NCBI GenBank assembly: GCA_016193315.1
Contig: JACPSJ010000001.1
Location: 727,478 to 791,477, forward strand
Source: Candidatus Kerfeldbacteria bacterium
GTDB taxonomy: Bacteria; Patescibacteriota; Patescibacteriia; SBBC01; CAIJZX01
Direction of reading: 5' to 3'
Length of the DNA: 64,000 nucleotides
The translations under genes and the position numbers were made by a program. The stretch's first letter is position 1. Each line of letters opens with the position of its first letter. The notes under the pieces are model-generated. The model was not told the DNA's origin. It did no database searches and was given only the letters and a program-made list of their open reading frames with translations. Below, piece by piece: positions 2,753 through 61,543 of this stretch.

Positions 2753-5185
<2,433 letters not shown>

Positions 5186-5433
5186 CTAAGTGTAGCACAA
5201 AAGCGGCTGATTGGGCAAGGCTCACGAACTTGACAGTATACCCTCTTTTTGCTACAGTCGCCAGGCCTCAAAAACGCCCGTTTGCACACTGGTTTCCACC
5301 CACGGCTTGAAAGGAGGGAGCGTCGTGAACAAACGACGAAAACGATTGGGCGCTCCCATGGATGGAAGCGAGCATGTGCTGGATCAGGCTCGGCGCGAGG
5401 CCCGGGAGCTTGCCCGGCGACCAGACCGTACCT

Positions 5434-12215: not shown

Positions 12216-15206
12216 TTAGACGGCTCTAAATTCACAGATTTCTCTGTAATCACAAAACCTACAAACCATCGGACTCGGCGTGGCCCGAAAATCGCCAGAC
12301 TGGATTTTCTTGACCGTGCCCCGAATCCAGTCGAGCGTGGTGGCTGAATCCCTGGCTGACGGTTTCATGGTCTTGGCTTCGTTCGCATCGATGAAGTAGT
12401 ATGCCAGTTCTTTCACCTCAGCGTTGAGAATCGATGGGTCTTGCGCCGCTAAAGCGTAGATGAGCAGCTGGTACTTATCGTCTTTTTCAAATTTTTCTTT
12501 CATTTTTCCTGTTTTGTAGTCGACAATCCTTACTTCCCGTTTATGCGCAGATTCGTCTGCCACATTCGTAGATTCGTTATCTGAATTCGTGGTCTCGTAG
12601 TCATCAACCCGGTCAATCTTACCGCTAATCACAAACTGATCGACTTTGAGATTGAATGTTTGCTCCAGCCGAAGCACGTTCGGCATGGCCTTGGTCGTTT
12701 TCTCGTACCACATCGATAACGCATCCTTCCCTTGTTGATAGTACTTTTTGCGTTCCGCTTTCGTCGGATACCATTCGTCGATGAATGATCGATCGTAGAT
12801 TGTCCAAAGTTCCGGTAAGGTGACTAATTCTTTGCTGTCGCCTTTGTTCTTCTGCCGCTCCTTCCAGAGCATGAAGAAGTTGTAGAGCGTTTGATGGATC
12901 GAGGAGCCATACGATAAAACATGACTCCCCTTTTTCGGCACCTGGAGCACGAAGGCGTAGCGGTACTTCCAGGGGCATTCGTTGTAGGTTGCCAGCTTGG
13001 TGAAGCTGAAGCTTTTTTCTCGTTTGGCGTAGGCCGCAAGCTCTTTCTTCTCAGGTGGGGTGGGGCGGAATTGACGATCGGGCGGCGGTCGTTTCCTCGC
13101 GGCGCCGGGCCCAGTGCCGACTTCAGCCGGCGGAGTTAATAATCCCAATTCATACAGAAACGGTGACGGCTTTTTCCGCCGCTGCCCGCCATAGTCTTCG
13201 GCCAGGGTGAAGAACACGCCGTCCCGGGCGCGGGTAATCGCCACATACATCAACCGTCGTTCTTCCTGCACGTGGGCGTCGCCTTGGGGCAGGATTTCTC
13301 GGACCAGGGCATCAGGTACTGGGATCGGATCTTTGCGGTCCAGGCCGGGAAAACGCTGCTCCACGACGTTGCCGATGAACACATAAGGAAACTCCAGCCC
13401 TTTGGCCGAGTGGATGGTCATGATTTTGATGGTGTCCGGACTCGATGTTCCCAAATCATGCTCGAGACCGCCGCTATCGCCGGATTCCGTAACATGGTCG
13501 ATGTACCGCAAGAATGTTTTGACCGTCGCCGGACGCTCGCCGTGTTGGAAGATCTCAATGAGTTTGAACACTTGTCTCAGCAGCGCGACCTGCTGCTGAG
13601 ACTGAACCGATTCTTCTTTCGTGATCGACTGTAAATAGCCCGAGTCGTTGAGGAAATGGAGTAACACTTCGCCGACGGGCTTCGTGTTCGCCAGTTCGGT
13701 ATGCTTGGCCACTAGCTGCTTCAACCTGGCGATCCCGTGGCGACTTGCGTCGCTGCAGGCTACATCATCGTGCTGCAGCTGTTCGAACAACGACCGCGTT
13801 TTCTTCTTGGCTCGGTACGACAGTTCAACCACATCGCCGTGGTCAATACCCCAGATGGGCATGGCCAGGACCCGATAGAGTGCGGCGTTCTCGTGGTAGT
13901 TGTCGAGTAGTCGCAGATAGGCCAGCACGTCCAGCACCAGCGGCTTGGTAAACAACCCGCGGGCCGCCAGGAAGACGTAAGGCCAGCCGCGGCGTTCAAA
14001 CTCATTGACAAACATTTGGGCATGGTCATTCGCCCGCACGAGAACACAAAAAGAATCCCAGCCTAAACCCTTATTCCTTAACCGTAAACCCTCAATCTTC
14101 TCCGCTGCTCCACGCGCTTCAGCTTCTTGGGTATCAACACGAATGTCGCCAATCTCACCCTTTCCTTCACGCTGGGCTTTGAGTTTCTTCACCACCGCGG
14201 TGCCATCCACGAGTTGTTGTTTTGCCTCGAGCCGATCAGGATTGTTTTTTTGGATGAAGGCATGAGCTACATCGAGGATTGACTGTTTCGTCCGGTAGTT
14301 CTTGGTTAAGACAACCACCCTTGACTCCGGGAAATCTTTCTTGAACCCCAAGATGTTGGAGACTGACGCCCCGCGGAACTTATAAATCGACTGGTCATCG
14401 TCACCCACGACGGTCAAGTTATTCCTCGCTGCACCAATTAACTTAATCAACTCATACTGCGCCCAGTTCGTGTCCTGAAATTCGTCGACGAGAACATACT
14501 GAAATTGCTGCTGATATTTTTGGAGAATGGCCGGGCGCCCACGCAGCAACCGCAAGCAGTACAAGATCAAGTCGCCAAAATCGAGGGCGTTGCTGTCCAG
14601 CAGCAGTTGGTTGTACCGTTCGTAGGCCTTAGCTAGTTCCAAAACTCGATCCGCCTCGGCCCGGTCAGCCGTCAATCCCTTTTTGCCCTTGGCCGCTGAT
14701 TTAGCGTACTTCAAGTATTCGGACGGCGAAATATCTTCGTCTTTGAGGCGCGAGAAGTGTTTCACAAGCGCGGAAATAAACTTTGTCGGGTTGCCAAGTG
14801 GTCGGTAATAATCCAGGGCGAATGCATCAAGATGTTCACGGATCAACAGCCACTGGTCGGTTTGCGACAATAGCTTAAAATCGTTTGATAAACCGATATC
14901 GAGCGCGTGCGCCTGCAGCAGTCGCTGCCCGAAACTGTGAAACGTCATGACCCACAAGTCGAGGTAACCGAACGGCAAAATCCGTTCCACCCGATCTTGC
15001 ATTTCGCCGGCAGCTTTGTCAGTAAAGGTCAGGGCTAAGATGCTATCCGACGGCACATGTTCATTCATAATCAAATGCGCCAGCCGTTCGGTAATAACGG
15101 TGGTTTTCCCAGTTCCAGCCCCGGCGACGATCAATAAGGGCCCGCGGCCGTGCGTGATGGCGGCTTGTTGTTCTTTATTTACTTTTTCAGGAATGACGCC
15201 GGGCAT
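12216..15206 (-). CDS. UvrD/PcrA-family SF1 helicase fused to C-terminal PD-(D/E)XK RecB/Cas4-type nuclease domain (AddA/RecB-like single-chain helicase-nuclease)
   Basis: Walker A AGAGTGKTT and UvrD motifs (TFTDKAAGEM, VLVDEFQDTN, VGDDDQSIYKFRGA, TIHSAKGLEF). C-terminal nuclease core with a Cys cluster (CPWKYRYAFV… and CRFCDYREICEFRAV at the extreme C-terminus) typical of RecB-family/Cas4 Fe-S nucleases. Contains the ETTNSDNESTN repeat insert. Confidence 0.85.
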   Translation of the reverse strand: MPGVIPEKVNKEQQAAITHGRGPLLIVAGAGTGKTTVITERLAHLIMNEHVPSDSILALTFTDKAAGEMQDRVERILPFGYLDLWVMTFHSFGQRLLQAHALDIGLSNDFKLLSQTDQWLLIREHLDAFALDYYRPLGNPTKFISALVKHFSRLKDEDISPSEYLKYAKSAAKGKKGLTADRAEADRVLELAKAYERYNQLLLDSNALDFGDLILYCLRLLRGRPAILQKYQQQFQYVLVDEFQDTNWAQYELIKLIGAARNNLTVVGDDDQSIYKFRGASVSNILGFKKDFPESRVVVLTKNYRTKQSILDVAHAFIQKNNPDRLEAKQQLVDGTAVVKKLKAQREGKGEIGDIRVDTQEAEARGAAEKIEGLRLRNKGLGWDSFCVLVRANDHAQMFVNEFERRGWPYVFLAARGLFTKPLVLDVLAYLRLLDNYHENAALYRVLAMPIWGIDHGDVVELSYRAKKKTRSLFEQLQHDDVACSDASRHGIARLKQLVAKHTELANTKPVGEVLLHFLNDSGYLQSITKEESVQSQQQVALLRQVFKLIEIFQHGERPATVKTFLRYIDHVTESGDSGGLEHDLGTSSPDTIKIMTIHSAKGLEFPYVFIGNVVEQRFPGLDRKDPIPVPDALVREILPQGDAHVQEERRLMYVAITRARDGVFFTLAEDYGGQRRKKPSPFLYELGLLTPPAEVGTGPGAARKRPPPDRQFRPTPPEKKELAAYAKREKSFSFTKLATYNECPWKYRYAFVLQVPKKGSHVLSYGSSIHQTLYNFFMLWKERQKNKGDSKELVTLPELWTIYDRSFIDEWYPTKAERKKYYQQGKDALSMWYEKTTKAMPNVLRLEQTFNLKVDQFVISGKIDRVDDYETTNSDNESTNVADESAHKREVRIVDYKTGKMKEKFEKDDKYQLLIYALAAQDPSILNAEVKELAYYFIDANEAKTMKPSARDSATTLDWIRGTVKKIQSGDFRATPSPMVCRFCDYREICEFRAV

Positions 15207-47913: not shown

Positions 47914-50900
47914 TTAGGCCCGCGCTAAACCAATATCGGCTTTTTTACCGTCCAGCTCGATGGTGGTTTTGTGGCTGACTCCGTCGAGACTCGGCGACGC
48001 GGTTTTCGCCCGAACCTCTGGCAAAATTCGCTGGGCGTACCGCTCCACCACCTGACCGGCCAACGTTTTAGGCTGCACATACAGGACGATTTGATCGGCC
48101 GGCTTCAGGCCGGCAGTTTTTCGCAAGGCGTTGATCTCACGCACCAGATCACGAACCATCCCCTCTTCTTTTAGTTCATCGCTGACCGTCGTGTCGAGCG
48201 CCACTCGATCAGACGACATCCATTCCTTGCCGGACGGCAGCGACTCGGCCACGTGAATCTCTTTGACGTTCAGTTCTTCACGCACGATCGAATCAAGGTC
48301 AGGCCGGAGCGCGGCCGTCATCACCAATTGCGCCAGCGGTTGTCGTACTTTCAAGCCGGCTTTGGCCCGCAGCGCATGGCCTTGCTCAACGATCTGCTTG
48401 GCCAGCGCCATGTCGCTCAGCAGCCGCGCGTCAATTTCGCCGACCGATGGCCAGTCTTCGAGGTGGACAGATTCTTTGTCACCGCCAACAACGTGGTACA
48501 CATGCTCCGCCAAAAATGGGATGAACGGAGCCATCAGTTTCGACAACTTCCGGAGCACGTGCTGCAGTACGACGCTGGCCACTTGCATTTCATCCGACTT
48601 GAATCGATCCCGGCTCCGCCGGACATACCAGGTTGAAAGATCGGTCACGAACGCGCCAATGGCTCGCGCCGCGCCGGTAATGTCATAGTGCTCTAGACGC
48701 TTGGTCACGTCTTTCGTCAGGACATTGACCATCGAATGAACCCAGCGGTCGAGCGGGTGGTTCGCCCGACCAACATTCGTAGATTCGTAGCTCCTATTCG
48801 TAGGTTCGTAGTTTTTATTTGTAGATTCGTAGAGTTGCCAAAAACTGACTACGTTCATCAAAATCAAGAATGTTTTCTTCACCCCTTCGCCAACAATCTT
48901 CGGGTCAAAGTTTTTCGTGTCCCACGGCTGGTTGGCCGTGTACATGAACCAGCGCAGAGCATCAGCGCCGTGCTTGGCAAACAGCTCGTCCAGATCACCG
49001 TAGTTCTTTAGCGATTTTGACAACTTTCGACCTTGGGTGTCGTTCAGGTGGCCGAGCACCAGGACGTGCCGGTACGATGATTCCTTCACCGCGCCGGCGC
49101 GCTGGAGCAAGGTGCTGATCGCCAACAAGGTATAGAACCAGCCACGCGTTTGATCGATCGCTTCGGAAATGTAGTGGGCTGGATAGCTTCCGGCACCGTC
49201 GATCTGGTTCTTGTGCTCGAACGGGTAGTGCCACTGGGCAAACGGCATGGCGCCGGAGTCGAACCAGGCGTCGGCCACCTCCGGAACACGTTTCATGGTG
49301 CCGTGGTGACATTGCGGGCATGACCATGCCAGACCATCAATAAAGGGCCGGTGGGGATCGAAACTGCCATCCGACTGGAATACCGTGGCCGGAAATTTCA
49401 ATTCGATCGGCCGGCCGTTTGGCACGTCCTCCAGTCGGGTTATGGTCGGCGCCGGCTGCAGGGATAAAGCCCACTCCGTCACCAGAATCGGGTCGGCGTG
49501 GGTGACGATGACAAAGGTTTTTCCTTCGTGCTTGGCATCGAGTTCGCGCAGAAAACTGAGCATCCGCTGACGAATGTCGGTCCACGTTTCTCCCCCGGGT
49601 GGTGCGTCGTGCACCCGTTTCGAACGATCACCGAACGTGGCGTGGAATTCGGCAATCGTTTTTCCTTCAAAAACTGGTCCGATGTGGTACTCGTTGATCC
49701 GTTTGTCCTCGGTCACGGCGATGCCCAGCTCTTGACCAATAATTTCAGCCGTTTGCCTGGCCCGGAGAAACTGTGAGGAGTAGATGGCGTCAATCTTTTC
49801 CGGCTCCAATTTCTGCGCTCCGCGTTGGGCTTGTTTTCTCCCCGACTCAGTCAGGGGACACAAATTTTTGTTGGCTGGTTCGGTGTTGAGCGTATTGTTC
49901 TCGTTGTTCGTGGATCCGCCGTGTCTGACGAAGAAATAGCGATTCCTGGTCGGTAGCCGATCGAGTAAGTCTTGGTAACTGCCGAGGCACTCCTGGTGCC
50001 CACACTGATCACATCGCCAGATCGGCAGCGGCGTCCCCCAGAAGCGCTCGCGCGAAACAGCCCAATCCTTCACCTCTCGCAACCACTCCCCAAAGCGTCC
50101 GGCTTTAATGTGCGCCGGGTGCCAATTGATTTTATTATTGTTCGCGATCAGTTGATCGCGTAGCTTCGACATCTGAATGAACCACGACGTTTTGGCGTAG
50201 TACAGGAGCGGATGTTTGCAGCGCCAGCAGAATGGATAATCGTGGGTGTAGTTCTCAATCTTGTACAACTTGTGATGCTTCTCCAGCCAGTCAACAATCT
50301 TCTTTTGCGTCTGACCTTTGGCATCGCGAACCTCCAAACCAGCCCACGGCTTTACCAACTCGTCGAACTTTCCTTGCAAATCGACGGTGTGGATCGTGGG
50401 CAAGTCAAGTTTCTTCCCCAATTGAAAATCATCTTCGCCGTACATGACTGCGGTGTGGACGACGCCGGTGCCTTCGTCGGTGGTGACGAAGTCGGCGGGC
50501 ACAATAGAATAGGCGTGTTCGTATTCCTGAGCCCACCGGCGAAGAATCTCTGGTGCCGTAAGGCCGGTCGGTTCCAGAGACCCTTCGCTTCGCCGCGGGC
50601 TTCGCTCAGGGATACGGCTCTTCCCTACTTCACGCAAATCCAGAAAATCAAACAGCGGCTTGTATTTCTTCCCGACCAGTGCGGCACCGGAAACGGTTTT
50701 TGCCACCTGCTCCTTCCTGAATCCTAAATCCGGCATTCGGTTCTCGGCCAAAATGTAGTACTCGTCGCCGCGCCGAACCCGGGCATACCGAATCTTTGGA
50801 TCCACAGCTAGCGCCACGTTCCCCGGCAGCGTCCACGGCGTCGTCGTCCAGGCCAGCACAAACGTTCTCGGTTCATCAACTAGTTCGAATTTCACATACG

Positions 50901-51501
50901 CTGCTGGCTCGGTTATCCGTTCGTACCCTTGGGCGACTTCATGACTCGACAGGGCCGTACCGCACCGCGGGCAATACGGCACGACTTTGTAATCCTGAAC
51001 CAACAGTTTCTGATCCCAAATCTGCCTGAAAATCCACCATAGTGTTTCAATGTATTCCGGCTGATAGGTGATGTACGGGTGCTCGAGATCGAGCCAGAAC
51101 CCCACGCGCCTGGTCATCTTCTCCCACAAGTCTTTGTACTTCCACACCGATGCCTTGGCCTGGGCATTGAACCTCTCGATGCCGTACTTCTCGATATCTT
51201 TCTTGCCGGAGATGCCGAGTTCTTTTTCGACTTCTATTTCAACCGGCAGCCCGTGCGTGTCCCAGCCGGCTTTGCGCTCGACACGATAGCCCTGCATCGT
51301 TTTGAATCGCGGAATGATGTCCTTGAACGCCCGGGTTTCAACGTGCCCGATGTGCGGGATGCCGTTGGCCGTTGGTGGTCCGTCGTAGAATACAAAGTCT
51401 CCTTTCGGTGAGGGTTTCGCTAGCGTTTTCTTGAAGATGTCTTGGGCTTCCCAATCCTTGAGAATCTGTTCCTCGAGTTCGGGAAATTTGGGGATGGGCA
51501 T
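47914..51501 (-). CDS. ileS: isoleucine--tRNA ligase with inserted histidine-phosphatase (phosphoglycerate-mutase-family) domain
   Basis: HIGH (PHIGH), KMSKS (KLSKS), CP1 editing domain and C-terminal anticodon-binding region. 1195 aa, versus ~940 aa typical. In-frame insertion at aa ~497-731 carrying RHG and downstream catalytic His of the PGAM/histidine-phosphatase fold (motifs in findings), bracketed by two CxxC pairs. Confidence 0.9.
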   Translation of the reverse strand: MPIPKFPELEEQILKDWEAQDIFKKTLAKPSPKGDFVFYDGPPTANGIPHIGHVETRAFKDIIPRFKTMQGYRVERKAGWDTHGLPVEIEVEKELGISGKKDIEKYGIERFNAQAKASVWKYKDLWEKMTRRVGFWLDLEHPYITYQPEYIETLWWIFRQIWDQKLLVQDYKVVPYCPRCGTALSSHEVAQGYERITEPAAYVKFELVDEPRTFVLAWTTTPWTLPGNVALAVDPKIRYARVRRGDEYYILAENRMPDLGFRKEQVAKTVSGAALVGKKYKPLFDFLDLREVGKSRIPERSPRRSEGSLEPTGLTAPEILRRWAQEYEHAYSIVPADFVTTDEGTGVVHTAVMYGEDDFQLGKKLDLPTIHTVDLQGKFDELVKPWAGLEVRDAKGQTQKKIVDWLEKHHKLYKIENYTHDYPFCWRCKHPLLYYAKTSWFIQMSKLRDQLIANNNKINWHPAHIKAGRFGEWLREVKDWAVSRERFWGTPLPIWRCDQCGHQECLGSYQDLLDRLPTRNRYFFVRHGGSTNNENNTLNTEPANKNLCPLTESGRKQAQRGAQKLEPEKIDAIYSSQFLRARQTAEIIGQELGIAVTEDKRINEYHIGPVFEGKTIAEFHATFGDRSKRVHDAPPGGETWTDIRQRMLSFLRELDAKHEGKTFVIVTHADPILVTEWALSLQPAPTITRLEDVPNGRPIELKFPATVFQSDGSFDPHRPFIDGLAWSCPQCHHGTMKRVPEVADAWFDSGAMPFAQWHYPFEHKNQIDGAGSYPAHYISEAIDQTRGWFYTLLAISTLLQRAGAVKESSYRHVLVLGHLNDTQGRKLSKSLKNYGDLDELFAKHGADALRWFMYTANQPWDTKNFDPKIVGEGVKKTFLILMNVVSFWQLYESTNKNYEPTNRSYESTNVGRANHPLDRWVHSMVNVLTKDVTKRLEHYDITGAARAIGAFVTDLSTWYVRRSRDRFKSDEMQVASVVLQHVLRKLSKLMAPFIPFLAEHVYHVVGGDKESVHLEDWPSVGEIDARLLSDMALAKQIVEQGHALRAKAGLKVRQPLAQLVMTAALRPDLDSIVREELNVKEIHVAESLPSGKEWMSSDRVALDTTVSDELKEEGMVRDLVREINALRKTAGLKPADQIVLYVQPKTLAGQVVERYAQRILPEVRAKTASPSLDGVSHKTTIELDGKKADIGLARA

Positions 51502-60622: not shown

Positions 60623-60880
60623 ATGTTTTACGTTTACCTCATTGAAAGTCAGCTCGATGGCTACTGGTACATCGGCTTCACGACTCACCTCAATAAGCGC
60701 GTTGCCAAACATAACCGCGGCGAAGTGACTTCGACTTCTTCTCGAAAGCCGTGGCGCCTAATTTACGCCGAGTTCTATCGGAACAAGTCTGACGCACTGG
60801 GTCGCGAAAAGTTTCTAAAGTGCGGCGCCGGCCTGCGTTTTCTAAAAAAGCAACTCCGCCACCACCTTAACGGCCGTTGA
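60623..60880 (+). CDS. GIY-YIG nuclease family protein
   Basis: MFYVYLIESQLDGYWYIGFTTHLNKRVAKHN…WRLIYAEFY matches the GIY-YIG core (GIY…YIG…R…H/N…E). Confidence 0.6.
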   Translation: MFYVYLIESQLDGYWYIGFTTHLNKRVAKHNRGEVTSTSSRKPWRLIYAEFYRNKSDALGREKFLKCGAGLRFLKKQLRHHLNGR

Positions 60881-60919: not shown

Positions 60920-61543
60920 ATGACACATCGCCCAGGACTTACCCTCACCCCAGTCCTCATCGCCTTCCTAGCCGTGGTGGCGTTTTTGGTGGTCTTGAAT
61001 TTTTCCATTCCGGCAGCCAAGCAGTCTGCCTCCACGAACCGCAATACGAGCAACACCTCCTCCTACGTTCCGGCCCCTGGCCACGAGAACGTCAATGAGA
61101 TGGTTGTGGTGAATGCGAATTCTACGAATGTGAATACGAACGTTGCGAATGTAAACGCTCCATCCGACCTCACCGCCGGCTGGACGACGTACTCGAACTC
61201 GACGCTGGGTTACTCAATTCAATATCCACCCGATTGGACGCAATCTGTGGTTGACGATGCCGTTCTCATCGTGCCGCCAGAAACAGTGGTCGCCGGGTAC
61301 GCCGAGGGTAGTATCCGTCTGCTGGTCCAAAAAGTCCCCACCATCTCAACTGACCTAGTGACAAATTCAAGCAACATTACCATCAACGGCCTGTCGGCGA
61401 CCCAGCAAACGGAAGGGGGCTTACGAATATACACTGCCACATACTTCCAGAAGGGCAACGAGTATGTTCAGGTTATTTACGAACAAGACGCAAACAGACC
61501 AGAATTCCCCCTCATTCTTACATCCTTTGCCTTCACCCAGTAA
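60920..61543 (+). CDS. hypothetical membrane-anchored extracytoplasmic protein (Asn/Thr-rich linker)
   Basis: N-terminal TM, NANSTNVNTNVANVN repeat linker, ~130-aa C-terminal domain. Confidence 0.5.
   Translation: MTHRPGLTLTPVLIAFLAVVAFLVVLNFSIPAAKQSASTNRNTSNTSSYVPAPGHENVNEMVVVNANSTNVNTNVANVNAPSDLTAGWTTYSNSTLGYSIQYPPDWTQSVVDDAVLIVPPETVVAGYAEGSIRLLVQKVPTISTDLVTNSSNITINGLSATQQTEGGLRIYTATYFQKGNEYVQVIYEQDANRPEFPLILTSFAFTQ

Follow-up and report, generated by a model that had tools for sequence, protein, structure and literature searches.

A 64-kb stretch of DNA (the window) from a metagenome-assembled genome, with an 857-kb contig, of a tiny and uncultured member of Candidatus Kerfeldbacteria (Patescibacteria) carries, within the coding sequences of two of its genes, both essential and unrelated to one another, arrays built from one and the same octanucleotide, and these arrays are the subject of the present analysis. 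The window has a guanine plus cytosine (GC) content of ~57% and densely packed genes, and the reading of the source genome covers this window and a further 561 nucleotides (nt). The first host gene is ileS (47914..51501, minus strand), encoding an isoleucyl-tRNA synthetase (IleRS) of 1195 amino acids (aa) that matches MBI2984792.1 exactly, and the second (12216..15206, minus strand) encodes a fusion of a UvrD-type helicase with a PD-(D/E)XK nuclease, 996 aa in length and an exact match to MBI2984755.1. A third gene (60920-61543, plus strand), for a small membrane-anchored protein of 207 aa without a Pfam match, has to be considered with them, as the original prediction for this DNA held that all three genes contained related, repeat-built Thr-Asn inserts.

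Octamer arrays in ileS and the helicase-nuclease gene

The repeat unit is an octamer with the consensus CTACGAAT and the core TACGAAT, which on the opposite strand becomes ATTCGTAG. The ileS array (48775..48832, minus strand) consists of three octamer pairs (48817-48832, 48796-48811 and 48775-48790) separated by 5-nt spacers of unrelated sequence (48812-48816 and 48791-48795). Written on the plus strand, it is ATTCGTAG ATTCGTAG CTCCT ATTCGTAG GTTCGTAG TTTTT ATTTGTAG ATTCGTAG, and the minus-strand gene translates it as LYESTNKNYEPTNRSYESTNVG (YESTNKN, YEPTNRS and YESTNVG; Y891-ESTNKNYEPTNRSYESTN of the protein). The array in the helicase-nuclease gene (12551..12600, minus strand) has the same 8/13-nt spacing and the same frame, its sequence in the window being ATTCGTCT GCCAC ATTCGTAG ATTCGTTA TCTGA ATTCGTGG TCTCGTAG with ATTCGT units spaced at 13, 8 and 13 nt, and is translated as DDYETTNSDNESTNVADESAHK (DYETTNS, DNESTNV and ADESAHK). 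Both arrays are composed of octamer pairs plus 5-nt spacers (8+8+5 = 21 nt), both are read in one common frame, x-Y-E-S-T-N-x, and they have an exact 16-mer, ACGAATCTACGAATGT, in common. At the level of DNA the two arrays are the same repeat. The description of these segments and of the third site as AT-rich islands was correct, with GC contents of 36%, 44% and 42% for ileS, helicase and third site, compared to 55%, 52% and 53% for the respective genes.

The octamer ATTCGTAG occurs eight times in the window, against 0.93 expected, and the 16-mer CTACGAATCTACGAAT, allowing up to three mismatches, six times against 0.30 expected, with five of the six occurrences in ileS and the helicase gene. 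The only 5-mers clustered in at least four copies at two separate sites are ATTCG and its one-base-shifted overlap TTCGT, and clusters such as that in the helicase gene, present once, have an expectation of 0.003 per simulated window. A coincidence between unrelated low-complexity segments could be proposed on the grounds that a 64-kb window should, by our own estimate, contain about one exact 16-mer that arbitrary positions have in common, and that the third site does resemble an ordinary linker. However, periodicity and frame match as well as sequence, the ileS of another genome has the same array in the same place, and the octamer, 16-mer and cluster counts all exceed expectation. Coincidence has next to no probability as a general account, and for ileS and the helicase gene it is very unlikely.

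A more serious proposal is that each array grew locally and independently, as a microsatellite expanding by slippage from its own seed (e.g. the ancestral GAC GAA, Asp-Glu, of the helicase loop), so that the likeness between them would be convergence. Tandem Repeats Finder does report a tandem repeat in ileS, and indeed the top repeat of the window (period 21, 2.8 copies, score 81); the third helicase unit, DESAHK, aligns to the ancestral DEKTKK, so that ACGAA-like sequence was already there; pure (CTACGAAT)n microsatellites occur elsewhere and control octamers form arrays too. In a slippage satellite all positions of the unit would be equally conserved and the spacers would be duplicated with the rest, yet comparison of the 16-nt octamer pairs of ileS gives differences at only 4 of 48 positions, whereas most of the mismatches fall in the spacers, which bear no relation to one another (AAAAA, AGGAG and GTTGG). 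The ileS array is therefore not the product of recent slippage of a 21-nt unit, and the earlier notion of a plain expanding microsatellite has to be given up. Slippage by single 8-nt units would, moreover, break the frame, the units being out of codon phase; two genes and a relative's ileS would have to converge on the same 16-18-mer; and the low expectation for such a cluster also stands against local growth, which is considered unlikely. Six Logan contigs from the same population, obtained in four sequencing runs, match the window with 100% identity, none of them spanning the ileS or the helicase array, and the 90% identity clusters of IleRS and of the helicase have one member each.

The third site is of a different nature. 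The Asn/Thr-rich linker of the small membrane protein (NANSTNVNTNVANVN; 61109..61160, plus strand) is made up of CGAAT-like hexamers at a codon-phased spacing of 6 or 9 nt, GTGAAT GCGAAT TCT ACGAAT GTGAAT ACGAAC GTT GCGAAT GTAAAC. Homologues with 28-39% identity have an Asn/Thr-rich linker (NTNTVSNTNAAT, NTNTTSNTNTET, of the NTNTxSNTNT type) at the same position, before a conserved TAGWKTYTN domain, and the closest homologue differs in length by just 2 residues. Since distant homologues share the linker and its repeats are codon-phased, this is probably an ordinary and ancient linker rather than the element found in ileS and the helicase gene. The original grouping of three related inserts thus holds for the first two genes and fails for the third, for which the presence of the same linker type in distant relatives had been named in advance as grounds for rejection. 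The word "probably" is retained because the 11-mer that had been reported as common to the helicase and third-site copies is real and extends to a 12-mer, TCTACGAATGTG, which is mildly surprising. Directly 5' of the small membrane protein gene there is a free-standing GIY-YIG open reading frame (ORF) of 85 aa (~60623-60880, plus strand), and a similar small GIY-YIG ORF lies close to argS in a relative (contig L001).

A DNA repeat in variable protein loops

Neither of the unit spacings, 8 and 13 nt, is divisible by three, and the choice of codons likewise points to DNA. TCT makes up 9% of the Ser codons in this genome, yet of the eight S-T-N tripeptides in window proteins three are encoded by TCT ACG AAT, with ileS, the helicase gene and the surface protein gene contributing one apiece, while a fourth, again in ileS, is encoded by TCT ACA AAT. 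When codons were redrawn for the same peptides according to genome codon usage, the probability of at least four ACGAAT was 0.004 for ileS and 0.0008 for the helicase, and that of a 16-mer common to both genes was 0.013. The same site in the ileS of the relative represented by L001, a Logan contig whose IleRS is 66% identical, reads G CTACGAAT CCACGAAT AAT CGACGAAT CTACGAAT GTTGA and is translated A-TN-PRI-ID-ESTN-V, the octamer being read in all three frames. Judged from these sequences the repeat unit is one of DNA and not of peptide.

The opposite position, that the Y-E-S-T-N heptad has a function, for instance in modification or binding, and was gained convergently, draws on the common frame and on the near-identical peptide ESTNV in both genes. 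It does not accommodate the use of the same rare codons in both genes or the reading of the relative's octamers as TN, PRI and DESTN, and the peptide is missing from nearly all orthologues and falls in a loop that is modelled as disordered. Peptide-level selection is accordingly rated as highly improbable, and the suggestion that Thr-Asn is itself the selected feature is not upheld, the unit being 8 nt long and readable in three frames. It had also been pointed out that the repeats share an ACG-AAT orientation; ileS and the helicase gene do agree in strand and frame, but no special cause is needed, as ATTCGTAG holds a TAG stop and a run of octamers is unreadable on that strand, whereas (CTACGAAT)3 reads through as LRIYESTN.

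In IleRS the stretch from SFWQL to HPLDRW is hypervariable, with a baseline of ~12 residues among 60 sequences, and in that set the octamer array occurs only in the window and in L001 (one of 59 orthologues); the inserts of other lineages at this site are different and mostly GC-rich. The array occupies the linker that immediately precedes the Anticodon_1 domain (from residue 918 onwards), and a solved IleRS structure (8c8u) has a 19-residue loop at this site. The helicase insert is carried by none of 64 orthologues, and an orthologue without it, P0125, probably comes from the genome of the L001 relative. Codon-level comparison with the closest orthologue (P0122/L276) reveals that a 27-nt core, ACGAATTCAGATAACGAATCTACGAAT on the coding strand (12564..12590, minus strand), replaces a single GGT codon, and the net gain is 11 codons. 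The insert (residues 868-889) lies between the IDRVD and IVDYK strands. In an AlphaFold2 model of the helicase (mean predicted local distance difference test score, pLDDT, 81.5) residues 870-889 form a coil, with pLDDT <50 at 874-886, that joins strands 858-869 and 890-898, on which the invariant nuclease residues D865, D868 and D896-Y-K898 are located. Both arrays are lineage-specific additions to indel-tolerant loops, and the alignment of orthologues and the placing of both segments in loops or linkers thus came out as the original prediction had anticipated.

An 18-nt run, ACGAATCTACGAATGTTG, extending across the 3' array junction and ending four codons before HPLDRW, is identical between the ileS genes of the window and L001, although the loop around it cannot otherwise be aligned. 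The neighbour-joining tree of IleRS, which is star-like and does not place the window and L001 sequences as sisters, favours neither common ancestry of the two arrays nor repeated insertion. The motif has either been actively maintained or been added recently and independently at the same spot.

IleRS has other additions besides the array. A complete histidine-phosphatase domain (His_Phos_1) is nested in it (residues 523-678; 49468-49935, minus strand; E = 1e-34) and, according to precomputed Pfam annotation, is present in most of the 120 best IleRS matches, which come from Kerfeld-, Uhr- and Komeilibacteria and other Patescibacteria. There is also a second hypervariable site, after DFLDL (50525-50640, minus strand; residues ~289-327), where the window has an in-frame, GC-rich, hairpin-forming insert of ~95 nt with a minimum free energy of -49.9 kcal/mol (z-score -2.6), single-copy in the window, and where relatives have other inserts (RATPPHRGGE, VGAGLKPAPT) or none. 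In the ileS of the closest relative (L277, encoding P0002) one and the same GC-rich hairpin motif is found in frame at both hot spots, the first having CCTCCCCTC-AGGC-GAGGGGAGG and the second CCCCTCC..GGAGGGG. GC-rich inserts are also seen in helicase orthologues (ATAGGGAPPDGGPREAV, SGGAGPDSAG, PLRKEGGSPG). This pattern suggests a second family of in-frame mini-repeats in Kerfeldbacteria, closer in nature to the palindromic elements of Rickettsia.

The TACGAAT repeat in other genomes

A scan for the 16-mer in 185,579 species genomes (87 loci) and in Joint Genome Institute (JGI) metagenomes (more than 120 loci) yielded 182 unique sites, of which 68 lie in arrays of at least four CGAAT units; no Kerfeldbacteria locus was among the matches from the species genomes, a collection without the source genome. 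The spacing of units in 49 of these 68 arrays is mixed (7-10 and 16-18 nt) and does not follow one period. An inverted ATTCG arm accompanies 28 of the 68 and lies downstream in every case, so that the arms converge, on either side of a loop of 3-88 nt. Counted more loosely, the seeded sites as a whole include 25 convergent and six divergent cases. In units that had not been selected by the search, A occupies position -1 in 85% and T occupies position -2 in 66%, and the core was accordingly taken to be TACGAAT. Contigs with arrays of this core range from 28 to 68% GC and belong to many phyla, and the elements measure ~90-160 nt, have inverted arms and are mostly intergenic and multi-copy, more than one copy per genome being found for L002, L035/L054, L057, L071 and L051. 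Many other genomes thus possess the same repeat in the form of multi-copy elements, often with an inverted arm. Unit gaps of 13 nt are rare outside the window (two cases), so that the 8+13 = 21 pattern of the window looks like an effect of keeping the frame.

The gammaproteobacterial contig L002 has a 23S rRNA gene of 4.1 kb with TACGAAT palindromes in insertions at helix tips. The palindromes are ~90 nt long (1909-1998, 4535-4624 and 5317-5406), two being inserted in the 23S gene at model positions ~583 and ~1218, which we take to be the two classical 23S intervening-sequence sites (helices 25 and 45), and the third copy lying between the 23S and 5S genes.

Several other forms were encountered. 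The divergent arrangement, (ATTCGTAG)n, spacer, (CTACGAAT)n, is of one type in all six cases (L005, L009, L033, L063, L151 and L253), those with a taxonomic label being Anaerolineae or Chloroflexota, and at several of these loci the array stands between a stop codon and the ribosome-binding site and ATG of the next gene, which in L009 looks like purA. Elements of ~160 nt at L035 (5268-5403), L054 (3133-3267) and L216 have outer ends, GGTGCGAATAAC ... ATTCGCACC, that resemble the IS5 terminal inverted repeat GGAAGGTGCGAATAAG, as read from Escherichia coli K-12. In a Saccharibacteria sequence (L030, 87-1130, minus strand) the inter-domain linker FNTNIRMDTNLRMSTNKTES of a 347-aa protein is an in-frame ACGAAT array, followed by PSPKGRES..PLGEAGG..SPLGRAGGG, which are hairpin-like GC-rich repeats. 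A pure array of 15 octamers and then three inverted units was found in a genome of 5.9 Mb (L089, 4020-4190). Long pure arrays have given rise to spurious LRIYESTN-repeat "proteins" (P0241-P0254), one of them called in the cultured Pseudomonas sp. PB106, and a protein word search with concatenated repeat peptides returned only such spurious small ORFs over pure (CTACGAAT)n arrays. The octamer also bears some resemblance to the tRNA T-loop (GTTCGAATC vs CTACGAATC).

About 12 of the genome matches are a coincidence that contaminates motif scans, as they reflect a coding motif on the opposite strand, MDTFVDSSWYF, the conserved class I synthetase motif of LeuRS (L008, L025, L026, L028, L032, L039, L052, L060, L076, L079, L085 and L088). 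No Rfam family matches the arrays, only the rRNA and tRNA genes of foreign loci being recognised, a BLAST search of plasmids with the L002 element gave no match, and no mention of a TACGAAT repeat by sequence was found in the literature searched, where a 77-bp inverted repeat of Porphyromonas gingivalis and a spacer of Clostridioides difficile were chance matches. A connection with CcrM and its GANTC site was considered and rejected, only 39% of units being followed by C.

It may be asked whether the arrays are kept inside genes for a function of the DNA itself, as iteron-like sites for a protein that recognises TACGAAT. Octamers that are conserved between free spacers, a 21-bp period close to two helical turns, the persistence of the core at 28-68% GC, the mixed spacing and convergent preference (25 vs 6) typical of binding-site arrays, and the identical 18-nt run in ileS genes whose proteins are only 66% identical would all fit this idea. 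No partner protein or conserved neighbour gene was found at 32 loci, however, the 21-nt period could equally be due to frame-keeping given the rarity of 13-nt gaps in non-coding arrays, and the arrays are missing from most orthologues. Retention for such a function is distinctly unlikely.

Origin of the arrays and comparison with known elements

The best explanation for the two arrays is that a dispersed octamer repeat has been captured in frame in two indel-tolerant loops, and a probability of about one half is assigned to it. One-armed blocks of three to six units would have been added to loop-coding DNA in the Kerfeldbacteria lineage, and such blocks would survive if they were in the stop-free orientation, as ATTCGTAG carries TAG, if 5-nt spacers (3 nt in the relative) restored the frame of the 8-nt units to give 21-nt super-units, and if the resulting hydrophilic Y-E-S-T-N peptide fell in a disordered, length-tolerant surface loop. 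The coding copies would then derive from dispersed elements and not have arisen on the spot, having been inserted in a transposition-like manner or copied from a different array in the course of repair or replication. The mini-insertion element with a tolerated role as linker, which the original prediction named beside a microsatellite, is a better fit than chance or convergence at the peptide level.

A number of observations weigh against capture of a dispersed element. The window arrays are one-armed, without an inverted partner, and their flanks are conserved coding sequence; neither the helicase insert nor the surroundings of the three L002 copies show a target-site duplication. The 64 kb of the source genome that were read contain two copies, leaving dispersal within that genome unproven, and searching by protein words brought up no other protein with an array from this genome, but the sensitivity was poor, as IleRS and the helicase were missed too. 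No arrays were present in 39 kb from the two closest relatives. Comparison of ORFs of at least 80 aa within 1.5 kb of the arrays at 32 loci revealed no recurrent neighbour gene such as a transposase. The counts from genomes and metagenomes stand without matched control octamers, so that enrichment across phyla is unquantified, and in viral contigs the tandem octamer had 12 matches compared to 30 and 18 for two control octamers; the control seeds also sit in arrays there, although these are perfect tandem runs without inverted arms.

Amongst known systems, the palindromic elements of Rickettsia which are like MITEs (transposable elements of the miniature inverted-repeat type), resemble the window arrays in being short dispersed repeats of lineage-specific occurrence that lie in frame within housekeeping genes unrelated to each other, where the protein fold allows it (PMC10969869). 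They differ in being ~150 bp long and palindromic with a conserved peptide, whereas the window arrays are 27-58 nt long and one-armed with 8-nt units, and the frame of the octamer repeat is not fixed across genomes. The GC-rich hairpin inserts of Kerfeldbacteria ileS are more similar to the Rickettsia elements than the octamer arrays are. Borg tandem repeats are reportedly perfect direct repeats, unlike the octamer repeat, which has imperfect units and unrelated spacers and whose motif turns up again at other loci and in other phyla. Borg repeats share with the window arrays the property of being nucleotide repeats within genes, divisible by three and adding disordered hydrophilic segments, and their repeat regions arise independently (PMC9879509). 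By analogy, the octamer arrays would appear to work like Rickettsia palindromic elements and like the repeat-made disordered regions of Borgs whilst being a member of neither group, because they are built of 8-nt units, have a single arm and lack a fixed frame.

The TACGAAT elements of other genomes, with their inverted arms and mostly intergenic, multi-copy occurrence, are reminiscent of repetitive extragenic palindromes (REPs) and the REPINs they form, and of bacterial MITEs such as BOX, ERIC and Correia. ATTCGTAG contains GTAG, a tetranucleotide typical of REPs. REP families are, however, species- or genus-specific and extragenic, whereas the TACGAAT core crosses phyla and its arms are arrays of 7-8-nt units, and the arrays in the window are intragenic and non-palindromic. 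Neither a transposase of the RAYT type (REP-associated tyrosine transposase) nor any other was linked to the arrays beside the 32 loci, a RAYT gene elsewhere in those genomes not having been searched for. As would be expected of an in-frame MITE, one repeat is in frame in two unrelated genes, in both cases at a loop site compatible with the fold; the palindromic or terminal-inverted-repeat structure of a MITE is absent from the window arrays, two-armed copies being confined to other genomes. Derivation from an IS5-type MITE was rejected, as the window arrays are without GGAAGGTGCGAATAAG-like ends and only the L035/L054/L216 sub-type ends in GGTGCGAATAAC. The L002 palindromes occupy sites of 23S rRNA intervening sequences, but L002 is foreign and not part of the window genome.

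Significance for Patescibacteria

The conservation of TACGAAT at GC contents of 28-68% implies some factor that recognises it. A broader view can be offered tentatively, and with more doubt than confidence, in which TACGAAT arrays would constitute one coherent and undescribed family of mini-elements, spread over phyla of both bacteria and archaea and serving as targets for some conserved protein, with convergent arms of 7-8-nt units and a short loop as their typical form, colonising intergenic spacers, 23S intervening-sequence sites and the loops of essential proteins in bacteria of the candidate phyla radiation (CPR). Together with the GC-rich hairpin inserts they might then be a main source of lineage-specific loop insertions in Patescibacteria. 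If so, the essential enzymes of CPR bacteria, despite their reduced genomes, would gain surface loops from short DNA repeats of a selfish or structural kind, and this would account for the lineage-specific insertions that are seen at the same hot spots of CPR orthologues. Such inserts shift alignments and inflate the apparent divergence in marker genes like ileS.

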